Assembly: GCA_040754625.1 (NCBI GenBank)
Contig: JBFMCF010000096.1
Span: 1,651-65,650 of the forward strand
Length of the DNA stretch: 64,000 nucleotides
From: a bacterium
GTDB taxonomy: Bacteria; JACRDZ01; JAQUKH01
Direction: 5' to 3'
The notes beneath the pieces were generated by a model, which did no database searches, was not told the origin of the DNA, and saw nothing but the letters and a program-made list of their open reading frames with translations. A program made the position numbers and the translations under genes. Numbering within the stretch: position 1 is the first letter of the stretch; the number at the start of each line of letters is the position of its first letter. Shown here piece after piece: positions 2,294 through 40,945 of the stretch.

Positions 2294-3631
2294 CTAATTA
2301 TAAGTTTCTGAGTTTTTGGTAAGCTTACTATTTACAAGAAGTATAATGTATAATCCAAGTCCATTTAGAAACATGTATCTCGCCAAAAATACGCTAAAGA
2401 GATATGACGTTACTATAAAAACTATTGATGTAATGAATACAACAGACGCAAGCCGTGAGTTTTGTCGTGAAAGAAGTCTATAGAAAAATGCATGCACTAC
2501 CAGTCCAAAACAAAAGATAAATATAAAAGACCCAAGCCCTCCGAAATCATATATTAAGCCGCGAAAAATTGTAAAAATATTCGTTTCAAATACATTATCA
2601 AAGTGGCCCGTTTCCATATATATTCCGGGCGAGAAGACCCTGGTAATTCCAAACGTGTTAAAGATAGACGCAAATGTGTAATATCCAAACGAGTTGAAAT
2701 CGTCCAAAAAAGTAGAAACCGATTCCATCCCAACATAAAACGAAAAGAAATCTGAAAAAGCATATATTTCCCCGAGCGTGTATGAAGTTATCGCAAATCT
2801 TAACAGACCAATGGTTCTACTCAAATTACCGGAATCAAAATACCCCTCTCGAGAAATAAATGATATCAATACAAGCGGGAGTAATAAAAATATAATACCG
2901 ATACTTTTCGGCATATAGGAAATTTTAAACAAATTAGTCTTGCCAGCATATATTTTCATTAAAAGAATTGATGCCAAATATAATGAGCTGGCAACAAACA
3001 AAACAAGTTTTGATGATTGTGTAACCATGATGTACAAAGCCGGAGTCAATGAAAGAGCAAGAAAAACCATTTTCCATGAGCGTGTTTTTTGAGAATAAGA
3101 AACAAAACCACCAAGGACTGGTGCTATATAGGTAAAAAACACACTTAAAGTACCTATGATTCCATACTCTAAACCCTTAGTTCCACGCATCGCAGCGAAG
3201 CGACCACTCGTAGCGATGGGATCAAAAAATATTGATTTAAGGTCATACCCGTTCAGAACCATACTGTAAGTTGAAAACACAATCGATAACACAATAGAAA
3301 TATATAAACAGCAGCGAATAAATTTACTGTCCAGTTGAGGTTCACATACAGATTTTTTAGTTTCATTCGCCTTGAATGCGTTCGACCAATTGAATGGTAA
3401 TGCGCTCAGCGAAAATGCCAACGTGCAGAGAAATATATATAAAATAGAAAATGGATTAATAGGTACATTAAATAATATAACTAATGGGAAAAATGTATAT
3501 ACGAACCATGCAAGTGAAAATATAGCGGCAGGGATAATGTACGTACCAACAGCAAGCCTTATAACAAATGCCTGCACAAGCATCATTACGCTGAATACTA
3601 TAGCCAACAGTTTATACTCAAATCCATACAT
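2294..3631 (-). CDS. Polytopic membrane protein, putative oligosaccharide repeat-unit polymerase (Wzy-like)
   Basis: 445 aa, more than 10 predicted hydrophobic spans, no catalytic soluble domains. It is the last gene of the polysaccharide array. Confidence 0.4.
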   Translation of the reverse strand: MYGFEYKLLAIVFSVMMLVQAFVIRLAVGTYIIPAAIFSLAWFVYTFFPLVILFNVPINPFSILYIFLCTLAFSLSALPFNWSNAFKANETKKSVCEPQLDSKFIRCCLYISIVLSIVFSTYSMVLNGYDLKSIFFDPIATSGRFAAMRGTKGLEYGIIGTLSVFFTYIAPVLGGFVSYSQKTRSWKMVFLALSLTPALYIMVTQSSKLVLFVASSLYLASILLMKIYAGKTNLFKISYMPKSIGIIFLLLPLVLISFISREGYFDSGNLSRTIGLLRFAITSYTLGEIYAFSDFFSFYVGMESVSTFLDDFNSFGYYTFASIFNTFGITRVFSPGIYMETGHFDNVFETNIFTIFRGLIYDFGGLGSFIFIFCFGLVVHAFFYRLLSRQNSRLASVVFITSIVFIVTSYLFSVFLARYMFLNGLGLYIILLVNSKLTKNSETYN

Positions 3632-7896: not shown

Positions 7897-8018
7897 TTAA
7901 ATGCTCTCAAAAGTGTGATAATGATTTACCTTAATAACGCGGAGATGTTAACATAAAAAGGCTATTTATGTCTATTTAAAAATTGAAGATTCTTCATAAA
8001 AAAAACATAATTAACTGA

Positions 8019-8119
8019 GCCATCGGGGATTTTTTTTATTTCCCGAAGGCTCACATTTGTTTTAGACCCTTCGTCGCTTTGCTCCTCAGGGTGAGTGGTC
8101 GAAACACACCGACCCCTCA
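8019..8119. repeat. MITE-like imperfect palindromic element, copy A (half element)
   Basis: About 85% identical over about 60 bp to the reverse complement of 39859..39920 (tgaggggtcgg.gtgtttcgaccactca.cctgagga..aa...gacgaagg.tctaaaa). It provides the last 11 codons and the stop of ORF 8086..9399. Confidence 0.6.
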
Positions 8120-9399
8120 TTTAATTCCTCTTGTTTTTTAACAATATTTTCAATAATAAATATTAAAGCGATATTAAACCATAAAAACATTGAAATTTTT
8201 TCGTTTTTATTATGGTTAGCAAAAAATATTGTAGTCTGTGAACAAAAAAAGTATCCAACCAAACTCAGCATTATGCCATCAAGTAAATTCTTTAGTTTAA
8301 TATCTTCTATTTTATTCCTCAACTCAAAACACTTTCTAAAAGAAATAACAATAATTATCAAAAAACTAACCAGGCCAATTATTCCGTTTTCCGGAGCGAT
8401 ATGCAAAAATATATTATGCGCGTGCCAGCCGCGCGGCCATTCTTCTTTCACCTCAACTCCTTTATACTTCTGAACAACAACATCATATGTGCCCGGTCCT
8501 GTTCCAAAAAATGGAAAATCTTTAATCATTTTTAAAGAGCTTCCCCATGTAGGGAGCCTGTCTCCAATACTGTCTTGTTTAAAATTTGCAATAGATATAA
8601 TTCTCGTTTTAATACTCGCGGGTAATATTAAATATAATAATACGACAGTCAATAAAATTAAAAGGAAAAATTTCCAATTTTTTAACACCCTGTTGTTAAG
8701 AATAATTAAAAATAAAAAAACGCCCGTAAAACCTATCCAGCTGCCGCGGGAATAACTAATTATTAAACCCATAATTAAAATAATTAATCCCAGTATAAAA
8801 AAAATCGAGGCGGCTGTTTTTTTACGGTAATTCATAAGAAAACTGATTAAAATAGGTATCAGGAGCACTGTCACGGCCCCAAATTCAGCACGGCCGCCAA
8901 AACTATAATAATTACGATTCCAGTAACTTAATTGCATTTTTATATGGTGATAAATACCACGGCTGACTGAATAAAGAACAGCTATTATTAAAATAAACAG
9001 TATTGCCTCCAGTTTGTTTTTATTATCAATATTATTTATTAATAAATAAGCCATGCCTATGTGAAGAAGAAAATCCCGAAAATATAAAAAACTGACCTTT
9101 GGCTGGGAAGAAAAAATTGAGGCGGATATAAATGTTATTAAATAAATTAAGACAGGAAAATCTAAATCGGTCTTTTGAAATTTAATTTCTTTATCAATAG
9201 CTTTTCTAATAAACCAGAATAATATTGCGGCAACTAAAATATTTTTCAAACTATGAAGGCTTATCATTTTACTGCCGACAGCAAAATCAAAGCCAATCCC
9301 GCCCATTACACTTATAAGCAATATGATTAAACTTAAAACCAAAATATCAAGAAATGTTTTAAAATTAATTGAAGGCATCATCATTAAAATACCCAACAA
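8086..9399 (-). CDS. O-antigen ligase/polymerase family membrane protein (Wzy_C domain), paralog A
   Basis: 437 aa polytopic. SRGSWIGF motif in a large periplasmic loop; G..PGT..D; WHAHNIFL. Close paralog of 14582..15853. Confidence 0.6.
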   Translation of the reverse strand: MLGILMMMPSINFKTFLDILVLSLIILLISVMGGIGFDFAVGSKMISLHSLKNILVAAILFWFIRKAIDKEIKFQKTDLDFPVLIYLITFISASIFSSQPKVSFLYFRDFLLHIGMAYLLINNIDNKNKLEAILFILIIAVLYSVSRGIYHHIKMQLSYWNRNYYSFGGRAEFGAVTVLLIPILISFLMNYRKKTAASIFFILGLIILIMGLIISYSRGSWIGFTGVFLFLIILNNRVLKNWKFFLLILLTVVLLYLILPASIKTRIISIANFKQDSIGDRLPTWGSSLKMIKDFPFFGTGPGTYDVVVQKYKGVEVKEEWPRGWHAHNIFLHIAPENGIIGLVSFLIIIVISFRKCFELRNKIEDIKLKNLLDGIMLSLVGYFFCSQTTIFFANHNKNEKISMFLWFNIALIFIIENIVKKQEELNEGSVCFDHSP

Positions 9400-13145: not shown

Positions 13146-14585
13146 CTACCTTCCATATATATCATCAATTCTCTCGATATCATCTTCCCCTAAATATTCA
13201 CCGTTCTGGACCTCTATTATTTCTAAAGATGTTTCCCCTTGGTTTTCCAGCCGGTGAACGGCAGTTTTTGGAATATAGGCGGATTCGTTTTCACGGACAA
13301 TCAATTCTTTTTCTCCAATCGTAACTTTTGCAATTCCTTTTATAACCACCCAGTGTTCTGAACGATGTTTATGCCTCTGGAGGCTTAATTTAGCATTTTT
13401 ATTTACGATTATTCTCTTAATTTTATACCGGCCACCTTCCTCAAGCACAGTATAACTTCCCCAGGGCCTGTAAGTACAAGTATGTTCTACCGCTTCTTTG
13501 CGGTTATCTTTTTCTAATTTTCCAATAACATCCCTGACTTTCTGGGAACATCCCTTTTTTGCTATAAGCGTGGCATCAGCAGTATCAACCACAAGACAAT
13601 CTTCCAAACCTACCGTGGCTATTAATCTTTTGTCACCAATAATAAGACAATTTTTTGTGTCTGTAGTTAAAATATCACCTATCTTCGCGTTACCCGATTC
13701 ATCTTTTTCGAGTATTTCAAAAAAAGAATCCCATGACCCGATATCGTTCCAATATAAATCCATTGGAATGACCGCGACTTTGTCCGATTTTTCCATCACG
13801 GCGTAATCAATTGAAAGAGAAGGCATTCTACCAAATTCTTTCAGCATATCATCAAAATTTTTATCGAGAAATTCACCAATTTGAGGGGCATGTTTATTTA
13901 ATTCTTTAATAGCTGTCCCAATGGTAAAGGCAAACATTCCCGAGTTCCAGTAATAATCCCCGGAATCAACATATTTCTGCGCGGTCTCTCTATCCGGCTT
14001 CTCAACAAACTTTTCCACCTTTAAATAATTAATTTCTTCTGCTTTCTTCCTTCTGCCTTCTTCCTTCAGTCTTCTGACTTTAATATATCCATACCCCGTT
14101 TCAGGTTTCAAAGGTTTTATACCAAAAGTTGCCATATAGTTATCTTTAGCAACCTCTTCCGCATATTTCATATATTTTTTAAACATATCTTCATCTTCAT
14201 TTTTTATCATCTGGTCTGATGGCAAAACATAAATTAACTCATCCAGCCCGCAGCCAAGTTTTTCAATACAGTATTTCACACCTAATGCTATTGCAGGAGC
14301 GGTATTTTTACTCATAGGCTCAAGAATTATATGAGCAGGCGTATTCGCCTGCTCATCCTGAGTACAACGAAGGATCTCAGAAATATCGGATTTCACATGG
14401 AATTGATATTTATCGTTAGTTATAAAAATAATATCTTTTAATGATACCAAACCTGAAAGCCTTGCTATGGTCTGCTGCAAAAAAGATTTACCATTGTTTA
14501 TTTTTAAAAACTGTTTCGGGTAATTGCGCCTGCTCATCGGCCATAACCGCGTCCCTGAGCCGCCCGCCAAAATAAATGTTTTCAC
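13146..14585 (-). CDS. manC: Mannose-1-phosphate guanylyltransferase / mannose-6-phosphate isomerase (bifunctional, cupin C-terminus)
   Basis: LAGGSGTRLWPMSRRNYPKQFL at the N-terminus; C-terminal cupin HRLEN.GE....IEVQNGEYLGEDDIERIDDIYGR. Confidence 0.85.
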   Translation of the reverse strand: MKTFILAGGSGTRLWPMSRRNYPKQFLKINNGKSFLQQTIARLSGLVSLKDIIFITNDKYQFHVKSDISEILRCTQDEQANTPAHIILEPMSKNTAPAIALGVKYCIEKLGCGLDELIYVLPSDQMIKNEDEDMFKKYMKYAEEVAKDNYMATFGIKPLKPETGYGYIKVRRLKEEGRRKKAEEINYLKVEKFVEKPDRETAQKYVDSGDYYWNSGMFAFTIGTAIKELNKHAPQIGEFLDKNFDDMLKEFGRMPSLSIDYAVMEKSDKVAVIPMDLYWNDIGSWDSFFEILEKDESGNAKIGDILTTDTKNCLIIGDKRLIATVGLEDCLVVDTADATLIAKKGCSQKVRDVIGKLEKDNRKEAVEHTCTYRPWGSYTVLEEGGRYKIKRIIVNKNAKLSLQRHKHRSEHWVVIKGIAKVTIGEKELIVRENESAYIPKTAVHRLENQGETSLEIIEVQNGEYLGEDDIERIDDIYGR

Positions 14586-15853
14586 ACCGCCCTTCCTTTT
14601 TCATCTTGCTTTTTGGCAATATTTTCAATAATAAATATTAAAGCTATGTCAAACCATAAAAACATGGATATCTTTTCATTTTTGTTATGATTAGCGAAAA
14701 ATACTGTTGTTTGAGAGCAAACCAGATAGCCCCCTAAACTTGCCATGGTTCCATTTAACAGATTTTTAAGATGAATATCATTAATTTTTTCTTGTAATTC
14801 AAAATACTTTTTGAAGGAAATAAAAATAATCAACAAAAAACTGAATAATCCAATTAACCCATTCTCTGAAGTAACATGCAAAAAGATATTATGCGCGTGC
14901 CAGCCACGCGTCCAATCTTCTTTAGCATCATTCCCTTTATACTGCTGGGCAATAACATCATATGTCCCCGGGCCTATTCCCAAAAAAGGAAAATCTTTAA
15001 TCATAGCTAAAGAACTTTTCCATGCAGAAATTCTATCTCCTGTAGTATTTTTAAAATCAGCTATGGAAATCATTCTCTGCTTTAAACTGGAGGGTATGAT
15101 TAAAAATAAAAAAACAAGTGTTAGAAAAGTTAAAACAAAAAATCTCCAATTTTTTAATATATGCACATACATCAAAATAAAAAATAAAATAACAGCGATA
15201 AATCCTATCCAGCTCCCGCGTGAATAACTAACTACCATCCCTGTAATTAAAATAATTAATCCTGACACAAAAAAGATTGAAAATGTCAAATTCTTCCTAT
15301 AATTAAGAAGAAATCCAGCTAAAACCGGTATAGTAAGCACAGCAGCAGCTCCAAATTCAGCACGGCCACCAAAGCTATAATAATTTCCATCATCATAGCC
15401 AAGTCTTGAATTTACATGTTGAATAGTCCCTCTGGCTGATGTATAAATAACAGAAATTAAAAAAATAAACAATATTGCTTCCAGTTTATTTTTATTATCA
15501 ATATTATTTATTAATAAAAAAACCATACTTGTATAAAGAATAAAATCCCGAAAATATAAAAAACTGACTTTTGGCTGTGAAGAAAAAACCACAGCAATTA
15601 AAAATGTTATTAAATAAATTAAAACAGGCAAATTCAAGCTGGTTTTAATAAAGCTGCTTTCCTTATAAATGATTTTTTTAATAATCCAAAATAAAATTGT
15701 TGCTATTAAAACATTTTTTAAGCTGTGCAGGCTTACCATTCTATTACCAACAGCGAAGTCAAATCCAACACCGCCCATTATACTAACGAGTAATGGAATT
15801 AAACTTAAAATTAGAACATCAAGAAAGGTTTTAAAAGCAATTGGAGATATCAT
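14582..15853 (-). CDS. O-antigen ligase/polymerase family membrane protein (Wzy_C domain), paralog B
   Basis: 423 aa with the same motifs as paralog A (SRGSWIGF, WHAHNIFLH, ISMFLWF.IALIFIIENI). Internal DNA stretches are about 90% identical to 8086..9399. Confidence 0.6.
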   Translation of the reverse strand: MISPIAFKTFLDVLILSLIPLLVSIMGGVGFDFAVGNRMVSLHSLKNVLIATILFWIIKKIIYKESSFIKTSLNLPVLIYLITFLIAVVFSSQPKVSFLYFRDFILYTSMVFLLINNIDNKNKLEAILFIFLISVIYTSARGTIQHVNSRLGYDDGNYYSFGGRAEFGAAAVLTIPVLAGFLLNYRKNLTFSIFFVSGLIILITGMVVSYSRGSWIGFIAVILFFILMYVHILKNWRFFVLTFLTLVFLFLIIPSSLKQRMISIADFKNTTGDRISAWKSSLAMIKDFPFLGIGPGTYDVIAQQYKGNDAKEDWTRGWHAHNIFLHVTSENGLIGLFSFLLIIFISFKKYFELQEKINDIHLKNLLNGTMASLGGYLVCSQTTVFFANHNKNEKISMFLWFDIALIFIIENIAKKQDEKGRAV

Positions 15854-37806: not shown

Positions 37807-38219
37807 CCTTTTCTCAAATTAATTAAAACCTCATTTATTAAGGTCGATGATGTTCCTTTTGTATAAGGGAAATAAACGATCTTTACTCCAACATCTTTAA
37901 ACCCAGCCTCCATTTTTTCCCATTTATTTTCTTTGTACCAATCATCTCCTACAAACATTATGTCAAACTTCAGTTTCTCCCAGGCCTCAAATTTATTCAT
38001 TGTCTCCTGTGGAATTACAGCATCTACATATCGAATACTGCGTATAATCTCCATGCGCTCTGTAAATGGGATAACTGCCTTTTTGGCCTTGTAGGATACC
38101 AACTCGTCAGTAGTAACTCCAACAATAAGTTTATCGCACATGGATTTTGCGTTTCGCAACAGGTTTAAATGCCCAATGTGGAACAGGTCGTAAACACCAG
38201 TCGTGTAACCAATAATCAT
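37803..38219 (-). CDS. tagD: Glycerol-3-phosphate cytidylyltransferase
   Basis: IIGYTTGVYDLFHIGHLNLLRNAK...VGVTTDE...R.EI...RYVD: HxGH cytidylyltransferase signature; 138 aa. Confidence 0.85.
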   Translation of the reverse strand: MIIGYTTGVYDLFHIGHLNLLRNAKSMCDKLIVGVTTDELVSYKAKKAVIPFTERMEIIRSIRYVDAVIPQETMNKFEAWEKLKFDIMFVGDDWYKENKWEKMEAGFKDVGVKIVYFPYTKGTSSTLINEVLINLRKG

Positions 38220-39790
38220 AGATTTACTCCTTTCAATTCGGTAAAGTTAATATCAGCACCAAATAGTTCCGACAAATTAAATTCAAGCCATTGGTCCACT
38301 GGAGTCGCGGCTTTCGGCAAACCAAATGAAATATTGTCTAGCGGAACGGGGAAACCAACCTTTTTGCGTCGAATAATCGGCTCTGGAATTAAATCCCGAA
38401 AGATGCGCTTTAACGGGCTTTTAATCTCACCGTCCTTCATACGATAACTAAACGCTACACCTGCCATACGTTCAATTAACGGATGACAATCCACAAAAGG
38501 AACACGCGCCTCCACTGAACATAGCATTGTCGAATTATCGAGCCGGCGCAGCAAACCGTGGAGATGCGCCACTTGAAAAAAATGTGCAACAATATCCAGC
38601 GGATTCTTTCGATGCATAAACGGACACAATGCATCTTCCACAATCTCCAGATCATTATGTGAACCATAGGCGTATAATTGGGTAAACTTCGCAACATCCC
38701 ATGTCTTCGCTTCAGACGCCCACCGAAAAATCCTGTCATACCCGAAAAAAAGTTCATCCGCACCTTCTCCGCTTAGAATAACAGTATTTTCTTTTTTGAC
38801 TTCGCTGGTCATTTTATATAGAAGAATTTCATTGGGCACTGACAATGGTTCACGCCGCTTTTTAATCATCCAGCGTCCCAGTGTGACAAATTCCTCGGAT
38901 GTAATTAACACCTCGTGGTGCTCACTATTAATATGTTTAGAAGCCAACCGAGCCCATTTAAATTCATTATTTTCAGTAAATCCAACTGTCCATGTATGCG
39001 GTTTTTGAGCCAATGCTGCTATAATAGTGCTATCCAAACCGCCGCTAAGATAAGAACCAACAGGCACATCTGAAATAAGTCTCTGTTGAACAGACTCAAT
39101 AATCAGCTGCCTTAGTTCATCATCTGTCGGCGGATCCTGATAAGTTTCGGGAAACTGCCAATAACGGTGTATATGCCCTGATAGCATATAACACCCTGCA
39201 GGAAACATCTCAACTCCCTCATATGCGGTCCTTCCATTAAAAAACGTTCGCAGTTTCAGATATTGACGCAGTCCAATCGGATCGGCTTTACTGCAACCAG
39301 TCAATTTTAATATGGGCGCTATCTCCGATGACAATACTAATTCCCCGTTTCTTCGATATATATAAAGCGGCTTTACACCAAGTCTATCCCGCGCCACAAA
39401 TATATCCTGTGTTATTGTATCCAGAATTATAAAGGCAAACATTCCATTAAGCCATTGCAAAAATTTTGGGCCATATTTAGCATATAATTCAACAATAACT
39501 TCCGTGTCGCTTGTGGTTTTCAAAGGAGTTATATTATGCTCACGGGCTAACTCCCTGTAATTATATATTTCACCATTAAAAATTATAACATGGCGTTCAT
39601 CACGGGAATAAAAAGGTTGATTACTACGATCTTCCATGTCCAAAATCTTCAGCCTCTTATGGCCTATTTGAATATTCGTAATTTTTACATAACCCATTGC
39701 ATCAGGGCCGCGATGATGAAGCAGTTCCAATGCAGATAAAAACTCCTTCTTGGAGTATTTATTATCGGAAGTTAATAAGATTCCACACAT
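38216..39790 (-). CDS. Asparagine-synthase-family glutamine amidotransferase, copy 2; start reassigned to the internal ATG
   Basis: MCGILL begins at 39790 with AGAGGT 6 nt upstream; the ORF-track start at 39811 has no RBS. HHRGPD, PP-loop LSGGLDST. Confidence 0.75.
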   Translation of the reverse strand: MCGILLTSDNKYSKKEFLSALELLHHRGPDAMGYVKITNIQIGHKRLKILDMEDRSNQPFYSRDERHVIIFNGEIYNYRELAREHNITPLKTTSDTEVIVELYAKYGPKFLQWLNGMFAFIILDTITQDIFVARDRLGVKPLYIYRRNGELVLSSEIAPILKLTGCSKADPIGLRQYLKLRTFFNGRTAYEGVEMFPAGCYMLSGHIHRYWQFPETYQDPPTDDELRQLIIESVQQRLISDVPVGSYLSGGLDSTIIAALAQKPHTWTVGFTENNEFKWARLASKHINSEHHEVLITSEEFVTLGRWMIKKRREPLSVPNEILLYKMTSEVKKENTVILSGEGADELFFGYDRIFRWASEAKTWDVAKFTQLYAYGSHNDLEIVEDALCPFMHRKNPLDIVAHFFQVAHLHGLLRRLDNSTMLCSVEARVPFVDCHPLIERMAGVAFSYRMKDGEIKSPLKRIFRDLIPEPIIRRKKVGFPVPLDNISFGLPKAATPVDQWLEFNLSELFGADINFTELKGVNL

Positions 39791-39858
39791 TATAACCTCT
39801 ATTTTCCTCATTTAGAAATAAAAACCATCCACAATGCTTATTTATCCATTTATTTATT

Positions 39859-39966
39859 TGAGGGGTCGGGGTGTTTCGACCACTCATCCTGAGGAACGAA
39901 GTGACGAAGGATCTAAAAATATACAAGAGCCCCTTCGCTTTGCTCAGGGTGAACAGTCGGGAAAAC
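39859..39966. repeat. MITE-like imperfect palindromic element, copy B (full element, inverted relative to copy A)
   Basis: The left arm matches the reverse complement of 8042..8119. The right arm (cccttcgctttgctcagggtgaacagtcggg) is an imperfect inverted copy of the left arm. Lies in the 180-bp intergenic gap. Confidence 0.6.
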
Positions 39967-39991
39967 TCCCCGCCTGCTCATTTACTTATCT

Positions 39992-40945
39992 TTATTTAAT
40001 AAACTCCCAATCATCATCTGGAGCACAAACAACTCTTCCCCACTTATTTTTTGGATCCGCCCACACCTCAAAGACATATCCCGCATCAATACAAGGCACA
40101 TTAAGCGGCTCCATTTGTACCATAATATTGGCCTTTCCAATCCCTGCGCCAACCAATGCCAAATCTACATTCCCAATGAAAGGGCCCATATCCACGGAAT
40201 CATATAATGACCTTTTCAAAGAAATCGAACACCACTGAACTTCTAACACTCCTTCCCGCTTCAAACCTTCTATTATTTTCTGCTTTTTTTCTCCTGTTTG
40301 TCCGTTCACAACCAGAACCCTGCGGTTTTTTAACAATTCACCGCGCCGTGGACCAGTGAGCAAAGCGTAAACAAAATAAAATGGGTAATAGTTATTATTA
40401 TTTATGATTATTTTTTTCCCCTTTAGCCACCGTTCAAGCGCTGGGAAATACCGTTCTTGAAATGGAACATTCGTGTAATTCAGATGAAGTGCTAATATTC
40501 CGTTTTCACTTATTTTACGTATCATTTGAGGATAATCCACACGTGCTTTGCGCCACTCATCAGCAGAATATTCTCCCGAATGATAATGTCCTTCAGTAAA
40601 CGGTCCAAGCCCGCCATTCAGAAGAATCCGGTGTTTAAACCGGCTAAGTTCCTGTTTTAATTTTTGAACAAACGGCAATCTTATATCGAAAGGTTGTTCC
40701 CCCAGTAAAAAAAGAAACTCGCCATCACTCATCCTGCAAACGGGCAGGAATTGGCGGCCGCACGCATTAACCAACTTATCTATAAACTCATTATACCACT
40801 CTTCGCAGCCACGTTTTTTTAACGCAAGTGTCTTACTGCTGCCCGGGACACAACTTCTTTCAAAACCGGGAATAACAAATTCGATACTCTCAGGAAACAT
40901 CTGCATTTGGTATTCCTTTGGCAATTTCACTGGTATCTGTTCCAT
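39992..40945 (-). CDS. Hypothetical protein, possibly GT-D (DUF1792)-like glycosyltransferase
   Basis: 317 aa, soluble. CRMSDGEFLFLLGE resembles the R.GDGE motif that I recall for GT-D domains; there is no other recognisable signature. Confidence 0.25.
   Translation of the reverse strand: MEQIPVKLPKEYQMQMFPESIEFVIPGFERSCVPGSSKTLALKKRGCEEWYNEFIDKLVNACGRQFLPVCRMSDGEFLFLLGEQPFDIRLPFVQKLKQELSRFKHRILLNGGLGPFTEGHYHSGEYSADEWRKARVDYPQMIRKISENGILALHLNYTNVPFQERYFPALERWLKGKKIIINNNNYYPFYFVYALLTGPRRGELLKNRRVLVVNGQTGEKKQKIIEGLKREGVLEVQWCSISLKRSLYDSVDMGPFIGNVDLALVGAGIGKANIMVQMEPLNVPCIDAGYVFEVWADPKNKWGRVVCAPDDDWEFIK

Follow-up and report, generated by a model that had tools for sequence, protein, structure and literature searches.

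Between two genes of a polysaccharide-synthesis locus, in one of its few non-coding gaps, lies a long imperfect palindrome, and the question that it raises is whether it is a structure built for this place, such as a regulator, a small RNA or a recombination site, or a piece of DNA that has settled there. The locus belongs to a 64,000-nt stretch of DNA (hereafter, the window) with a G+C content of about 36%, in which polysaccharide-synthesis genes are abundant and all gene-like ORFs of at least 150 aa are on the minus strand. The initial annotation had placed a palindrome of about 110 bp in a 180-nt gap (39812-39991), and this is the length of the gap if the longest ORFs on either side (39992-40945 and 38216-39811, both on the minus strand) are taken at face value. 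The AsnB-like gene downstream has its longest-ORF start at 39811, but the database protein P0001 (524 aa, 100% identical) starts seven codons later, at 39790, with the N-terminus MCG that is typical of AsnB. Judging from this sequence signature, the gene probably starts with the MCG at 39790, which would make the real spacer probably 201 nt long (39791-39991). The upstream gene (39992-40945) is an uncharacterized partner of the block of AsnB, cytidylyltransferase and glycerophosphotransferase genes, and it is conserved in a related contig (L070). The coordinates of these features and of the repeat units described below are given in the table.

Table. Coordinates of the repeat units in the window and of the genes that flank the gap. 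R1 is the covariance model described in the text.
Feature	Position	Strand	Description
Inverted doublet	39859..39980	.	Units tail to tail, with their hairpin-2 ends facing and an A/T-rich spacer between them
Unit Br	39925..39980	-	Reads TGAGCAGGCGGGGAGTTTTCCCGACTGTTCACCCTGAGCAAAGCGAAGGGGCTC on the transcribed strand; R1 61.7 bits, E 1.4e-13
Unit Bl	39859..39917	+	Inverted with respect to Br; reads TGAGGGGTCGGGGTGTTTCGACCACTCATCCTGAGGAACGAAGTGACGAAGGATCT; R1 79.3 bits, E 5.9e-18
Unit A	8061..8119	-	Single unit, sense; R1 78.2 bits, E 1.1e-17
Unit C	14332..14380	+	Compact; reads TGAGCAGGCGTATTCGCCTGCTCATCCTGAGTACAACGAAGGATCTCAG; R1 45.4 bits, E 1.5e-9
Gene 5' of the gap	39992..40945	-	317 aa, without a Pfam match; stop codon 12 nt before unit Br
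AsnB-like gene 3' of the gap	38216..39790 (probable start)	-	Glutamine-hydrolysing asparagine synthase; Pfam Asn_synthase and GATase_7

The palindrome itself is present and slightly longer than first described (122 nt), and both of the arms that had been quoted for it could be located, the left at 39866-39911 and the right at 39932-39962. Folding of the 180-nt gap as RNA gave -53.4 kcal/mol for the minus strand (z -2.6) and -52.9 kcal/mol for the plus strand (z -3.0), in agreement with the structure that had been proposed. When a 125-nt element was folded as DNA, the z-scores were -4.1 and -4.3, and none of 200 shuffled sequences was as stable. The minimum-energy fold of the plus strand is the long hairpin, while on the minus strand four local hairpins are about equally stable. 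The palindrome had also been called copy B of an element, and a repeat search bears this out: a stretch at 8060-8124, oppositely oriented, is 88% identical to the left arm. The core pattern CCTGAG..CRAAGYGA..AGG occurs three times in the window, against 0.00 occurrences expected.

Alignment of these copies shows that the palindrome is an inverted doublet of dispersed repeat units of about 55 nt each and not a structure specific to this locus. Unit A, unit Bl and the reverse complement of unit Br align as versions of one unit, so that the palindrome consists of a unit, a short spacer and an inverted unit. The repeat unit is 47-90 nt long and is made up of two adjacent hairpins. Hairpin 1 has a stem of 9-13 bp beginning with TGAG (for example GAGGGGTCG / CGACCACTC), and this 5' start is found in seven of seven units. 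Hairpin 2 has the stem ATCCT / AGGAT or ACCCT / AGGGT, tolerates a variable apical insert, and contains in order GA, an optional G-GA, a mini-hairpin (ACGAAGT or GCAAAGC), an optional GA-C, and GA, which creates tandem G.A mismatches; in short, it is a CCTGAG...GAAGG stem with GA/GA mismatches and a G/A-rich GAA or AAA mini-hairpin inside. In unit Bl, positions 39860-39868 pair with 39877-39885 in hairpin 1, and in hairpin 2 ATCCT (39886-39890) and AGGAT (39908-39912) enclose GA-G-GA-ACGAAGT-GA-C-GA. Unit Br has TGAGCAGGCGGG / CCCGACTGTTCA as hairpin 1 and a short hairpin 2, CCCT-GA-GCAAAGC-GA-AGGG. Pairs were counted on six units, half of them from the window and half from elsewhere: 94% of the cells in the paired columns form pairs, with compensatory changes in 4 of 17 pairs; in a control in which the 3' partners were slid by 1-3 columns, pairing was only 32-47%. 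A covariance model built from these six units (R1) and run without filters over the whole window recovered four units, at 79.3, 78.2, 61.7 and 45.4 bits, the fourth of which (unit C) had not been used in training.

The two arms of the doublet belong to different subtypes. Unit Bl resembles unit A (89% identity) and is 93-95% identical, over aligned positions, to the copies from an Omnitrophota single-cell genome, while unit Br shares its hairpin-1 arm, TGAGCAGGCG, with unit C. This suggests that the doublet arose by two separate insertions and not by transposition of a ready-made doublet, and it would explain why the palindrome is imperfect.

The two units elsewhere in the window lie in or over genes. 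A Wzy-like ORF (8086-9399) runs into unit A and ends ...KKQEELNEGSVCFDHSP before its stop, the unit providing ten C-terminal codons (EGSVCFDHSP) and, with the TGA of its CCTGAGG, the stop. No element is present at the paralog Wzy2, which ends ...KKQDEKGRAV. These two paralogs of the O-antigen polymerase or ligase family (8125-9238 and 14600-15710) lie 6.47 kb apart and share about 75% DNA identity (repeat families D1-D6); the repeat comes after one of them, and manC immediately after the other. At 8016-8053, 7 nt from unit A, there is a further hairpin, GAGCCATCGGGGA-TTTTTTTTA-TTTCCCGAAGGCTC, in a region that scores weakly with R1 (17.9 bits, E 0.011); this hairpin may be what is left of an inverted partner of unit A, or else a terminator-like structure with no relation to it.

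Unit C, for which folding as DNA gave z-scores of -7 to -8, lies antisense and in frame within manC (13146-14585, minus strand). It encodes approximately residues 69-85 of ManC (EILRCTQDEQANTPA), in a variable surface loop, and the manC ORF is intact, with 479 aa and all expected Pfam domains. At the position of unit C, the window's ManC is 10 residues longer than the Thermotoga enzyme, and in a multiple alignment its closest relative (P0122, on contig L147; 83% identity) is shorter by 10 residues, or 30 nt, at exactly this point. The DNA of this ortholog is without 30 nt of unit C and retains CCTGCTCAT. In another ortholog (L149), hairpin 2 is lost and a stem resembling hairpin 1 is retained, in which a change is compensated (TGAGCAGCC...GGCTGCTCA). 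Apart from this remnant at the manC site, no units were found in L147 to L150. In L149, the spacer between Wzy and manC is 280 nt long (2993-3273) and holds what by eye is a seemingly decayed GIY-YIG-type ORF (KWYYVYLLISNKTSWIYTG, then a stop).

Relatives of the locus show what the gap looks like without the palindrome. Contig L070 encodes orthologs of both flanking genes, with amino acid identities of 68% (the 317-aa protein) and 77% (AsnB), and the orthologous spacer is an A/T-rich sequence of 100 nt with no element; a search of the 21.5 kb of this contig with R1, at E-values of up to 1, found no match. The window's spacer minus the 122-nt element comes to about 79 nt, which is comparable. 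There is also no element in L071 to L073, which share the AsnB, cytidylyltransferase and glycerophosphotransferase block and have a different upstream gene. All of these differences in presence and absence rest on orthologs at about 70-83% protein identity. The flanks of the element are A/T-rich, and no consistent target-site duplication was found.

The gap had been described as lying exactly at a module boundary, and this does not hold: since the two flanking genes adjoin each other in L070 as well, the palindrome sits inside a conserved gene pair. The same finding bears on the proposal of a recombination site, at which modules of polysaccharide genes would be exchanged as they are at an integron attC or a Xer site. 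The element does look superficially attC-like, being an imperfect palindrome directly 3' of an ORF with conserved ends and a middle of variable length. However, a conserved flanking pair is no cassette boundary, the element occurs at only 3 of about 58 gene junctions with one copy within a gene, and neither R''/R' boxes (RYYYAAC / GTTRRRY) in the aligned units, read by eye, nor a recombinase-like domain in the 14 neighboring proteins scanned against Pfam could be found. Homologous recombination could use the repeated copies as substrates, but nothing marks this one as a dedicated site, and we regard site-specific recombination here as very improbable.

A role in RNA was the other set of possibilities raised for the gap. 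A terminator or attenuator is not indicated, as there is no T/U run after the hairpin on either strand (the sense strand continues 3' of it as ...CCCCTCAAATAAATAAATGG) and no terminator-like site in the gap; the only terminator calls, at 39742-39756, are within the AsnB coding sequence. No promoter-like sites were found in the gap on either strand. Rfam yielded no matches in the window at gathering thresholds, and for 39700-40100, with E-values of up to 10 allowed, the best scores were 12-20 bits against thresholds of 38-60, so that no family can be assigned to the window or to the gap. Among eight loci with copies of the family, Rfam matched only RNase P and a tRNA. We also considered reading CUGAGGA...GAC as a hammerhead, but stem II is followed by C where the core needs GAA, and there was no Rfam hammerhead match. 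Pfam and NCBIfam scans of the peptides encoded by the element returned no family, and full-text literature searches for its DNA, RNA or encoded-peptide strings returned nothing relevant. The compact and stable structure, in one of the few non-coding gaps, is what an independent small RNA gene might look like, but the missing promoter-like and terminator-like signals on both strands and the lack of an Rfam match argue against such a gene, as do the occurrence of the unit in both orientations and inside a coding sequence and its absence from the ortholog; of all the readings weighed here we give this one the least credence.

Copies of the same subfamily in other genomes show a pattern of placement that has to be weighed in this context. 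The window's own contig is absent from both the genome set and the metagenome collection that were scanned. An exact 19-mer across the hairpin junction was found in only two contigs of the genome set (L032 and L033), both from the Candidatus Omnitrophota single-amplified genome (SAG) AM-311-C11, and a slightly shorter pattern hit 20 metagenome loci, of which only L050 is a real match. The exact-pattern scan for the subfamily in viral contigs gave zero hits, and blastn of the element against plasmids gave only a chance match in Serratia. In the copies from the SAG and L050, the apex of hairpin 2 is extended by an insert of 19-23 nt, bounded by CCTGAGGA(GC) and (GC)GACGAAGG; in L050 this insert is a perfect stem-loop. 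The full units of the subfamily outside manC (A, Br, L032, L033 and L050) are in the sense orientation and 0-12 nt from the upstream stop codon; only Bl, which is paired with Br in inverted orientation, departs from this. In L032 the stop codon is the TGA of TGAG, in L033 it precedes the unit by 3 nt, in L050 and copy A the ORF reads into the element, and in Br there is a gap of 12 nt. Two of the three sense frames of the unit contain a TGA. The sample is small, and the placement at stop codons could reflect a choice of target, tolerance at gene ends or a role in RNA. On L033, positions 1616-2172 match the bacterial RNase P RNA, with 557 nt against a model of 367 positions and large insertions; R1 found no repeat unit in this region.

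This placement, together with the covarying stem of hairpin 2, the stability of the sense-strand hairpins as RNA and the position inside a long one-strand gene array that is transcribed, would fit a selected cis-acting RNA element, in which hairpins after the stop codon shield the upstream cistron from 3' exonucleases or attenuate read-through into AsnB. REP and ERIC elements in enterobacterial operons have such mRNA-stabilizing or attenuating effects. We nevertheless consider a selected element of this kind unlikely, albeit less so than a recombination site or a small RNA gene. It is missing from the orthologous spacer of L070, it has no U tract, terminator call or Rfam match, unit C is antisense within a coding sequence, one arm of the doublet is necessarily antisense, and the wider family has no orientation bias.

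This wider family is defined by hairpin 2, which extends far beyond the subfamily of the window. An exact 21-mer, ATCCTGAGCGAAGCGAAGGAT, was found in 31 IMG/VR contigs, where it is embedded in GTCATCCTGAGCGAAGCGAAGGATCTC and often paired with an inverted copy beyond a variable spacer; in this family the 5' tag is GTCA. When three inner stem positions on each side were left free (GTCATNNNGAGCGAAGCGANNNATC), we retrieved 107 distinct copies, and the two triplets were fully complementary in 98 of them, over eight stem variants. This covariation is strong evidence for conservation of a folded single strand, be it DNA or RNA. The GGAGC...GCGAC variant of the window is also widespread. In all, hairpin 2 is present in more than 100 uncultivated viral contigs and on cyanobacterial and Bacteroidota plasmids (Planktothrix, Gloeothece, Hymenobacter and Phocaeicola), and a search of cultured phages with the canonical doublet gave no match. 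Single copies between co-directional ORFs were sense in 14 cases and antisense in 16, and thus without orientation bias, as far as crude ORF calls can tell. In Planktothrix, copies bordered by tandem partial copies lie within annotated and intact MmeI and PglX genes. The Planktothrix doublets are each bordered by tandem partial copies of their own outer end, and the MmeI and PglX genes that hold them are apparently unusually long. On Planktothrix plasmids (L151, 370-1190, and L145/L152), a gene for a 94-aa GIY-YIG nuclease lies between doublets of the canonical hairpin.

The breadth of this distribution, from Omnitrophota-like bacteria to Cyanobacteriota, Bacteroidota and many uncultivated phage-like contigs, allows a tentative reading, which we hold to be possible though doubtful, that hairpin 2 is a recognition module selected for its structure across phyla and used by a widespread trans-acting protein, with carriers that spread from genome to genome and can turn into coding sequence when inserted in frame. 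The module has the form stem / GA / GAA mini-hairpin / GA / stem, with GTCA or CTCA ahead of it, and an HUH transposase or a replication initiator may be the partner. In two contigs (L024, 10731-11625, and L025, 278-1248), a gene that weakly matches an HUH replication initiator (REP_ORF2-G2P, E 1e-4) has the canonical hairpin at a distance of about 120-190 nt, and there the hairpin might be origin-like.

Known systems of small palindromic repeats offer a framework for the element. REPs and REPINs, which are hairpin-forming doublets of REPs, are mobilized as folded single strands by RAYT transposases of the Y1/HUH type (Bertels & Rainey 2011, PMC3116915). In Nostoc punctiforme, the RAYT gene npun_f5543 is flanked by the palindrome gttgggttGAGGAACGAaacccaac (PMC3116915, Table S2), the loop of which is identical to the nine bases that open the loop of unit Bl, and this REP and hairpin 2 share the same design of stem / GAGGAACGA / stem (stem / GA / G-GAA-C / GA / stem). 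The element resembles REPs and REPINs in further respects: its palindromic units are short and are found singly or as inverted pairs, the pair at 39859-39980 folding into one long hairpin, they seem to lie mostly between genes of one operon, the sets of copies are specific to lineages, and the hairpin is kept by compensation. It also differs from them. The units carry TGAG as their 5' tag and copies of the wider family GTCA, and the GTAG or CGTC that forms the 5' foot of REPs is absent; the unit has two hairpins, and the arms of the doublet are of different subtypes; the core of hairpin 2 is common to several phyla, while REPs are usually specific to a species; and one copy, unit C, is in frame inside a gene. 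Of the four units in the 64 kb, two are in a spacer, one is over the 3' end of a gene and one is within a gene.

Our search for a partner enzyme did not yield a candidate. With a RAYT-like query, tblastn detected no Y1-transposase-like sequence within the window, and when the 732 ORFs near copies of the family were clustered, only phage structural proteins were found in common. The GIY-YIG gene was set aside as a partner, as it was seen at only 2 of 153 loci and does not generalize. Four RAYT-like genes were inspected (in L087, L094, Bernardetia and Chlorohelix), and each has REPs on its flanks that are unrelated to the element; only the Nostoc REP has a loop that resembles it. Those of L087 (1050-1950) and L094 (1200-1420) carry the motifs NHVH and FWQDESFDHW and are flanked by the palindrome GTGGCGCAGGCTTC.GCCTGTGGGG...CCACAGGCTG.AAGCCTGCGCCAC, which is unrelated to the element studied here, in a layout that resembles a textbook REPIN/RAYT arrangement. 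Because no partner enzyme was found and the tag is TGAG or GTCA, the best-supported statement is that the element works like a REPIN, which falls short of membership among REPs and REPINs.

Other families share single traits with it. Rickettsia palindromic elements (RPE), reportedly described by Ogata and colleagues in 2000, are said to be in-frame palindromic repeats that are tolerated as surface peptide segments. They are 100-150 bp long and confined to Rickettsia. Unit C in ManC and the family copies in MmeI and PglX of Planktothrix are likewise in-frame palindromic repeats, and unit C is inserted in frame in an intact gene, adding 10 residues relative to the closest ortholog; the units are, however, 47-90 nt long, unrelated in sequence and mostly located at gene ends or in spacers. 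The element thus has only its in-frame behavior in common with RPE and is not a member of that family. ERIC/IRU and Correia elements, which are MITE-like repeats of enterobacteria and neisseriae, are imperfect palindromes and measure about 100-150 bp. They are transcribed together with the operons in which they lie, and they can change the stability of the mRNA or the ends of genes. They have terminal inverted repeats and target duplications (TA in Correia elements), and each is restricted to one genus or family. Our element is also an imperfect palindrome within an operon, but each half of the doublet is itself a pair of hairpins, and no target duplication is defined. The small dispersed repeats (SDR) of filamentous cyanobacteria are said, in work by Elhai and colleagues in 2008, to be about 21-27 nt long, to occur in hairpin contexts and to be nested or arrayed. 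The copies in Planktothrix and Gloeothece are SDR-like in size, with tandem partial copies alongside, a likeness drawn from the description of SDR. Finally, the mini-hairpin d(GCGAAGC) is a very stable DNA structure of the form GCGNAGC (PMC13037366). The canonical apex of hairpin 2, GCGAAGC, fits this form, and none of the apices in the window (ACGAAGT, GCAAAGC and GTACAAC) does; d(GCGAAGC) is a structural motif and not a family of elements.

The repeat behaves as mobile repeats do: it occurs as singlets and as inverted doublets, its presence depends on the lineage, it is found in either orientation, it inserts at gene ends and in frame, and its hairpin is maintained by compensation. We therefore conclude, with a probability of roughly 70%, that two inverted units of a small, dispersed palindromic repeat make up the palindrome, and that this repeat is of the REP/REPIN or MITE kind and probably mobile. 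Its copies would spread as non-autonomous mobile DNA, with a trans-acting enzyme that may recognize the folded single strand in the way that HUH/Y1 (RAYT) transposases do with REPs, and the doublet at 39859-39980 would have formed when one unit was inserted beside another of a different subtype. At this position the element probably has no selected function and is most likely selfish DNA. Transcription of the operon runs through it, and its folding in the mRNA may, as a by-product, make the upstream cistron decay more slowly in the 3'-5' direction.

For the locus, the result is a deflationary one, in that no dedicated regulator of the polysaccharide operon sits in the gap, and the hairpin should not be annotated as a terminator or small RNA. 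At the same time, a single repeat accounts for three oddities of the annotation, namely the C-terminus of Wzy1, the extra loop of ManC and the long spacer before AsnB. Of wider interest is the core of the hairpin, which covaries and is found across phyla, and which has no name in the RNA and protein family libraries or the literature that we searched. In poorly known phyla, a repeat of this kind may break assemblies, create spurious small ORFs and alter the ends of genes.
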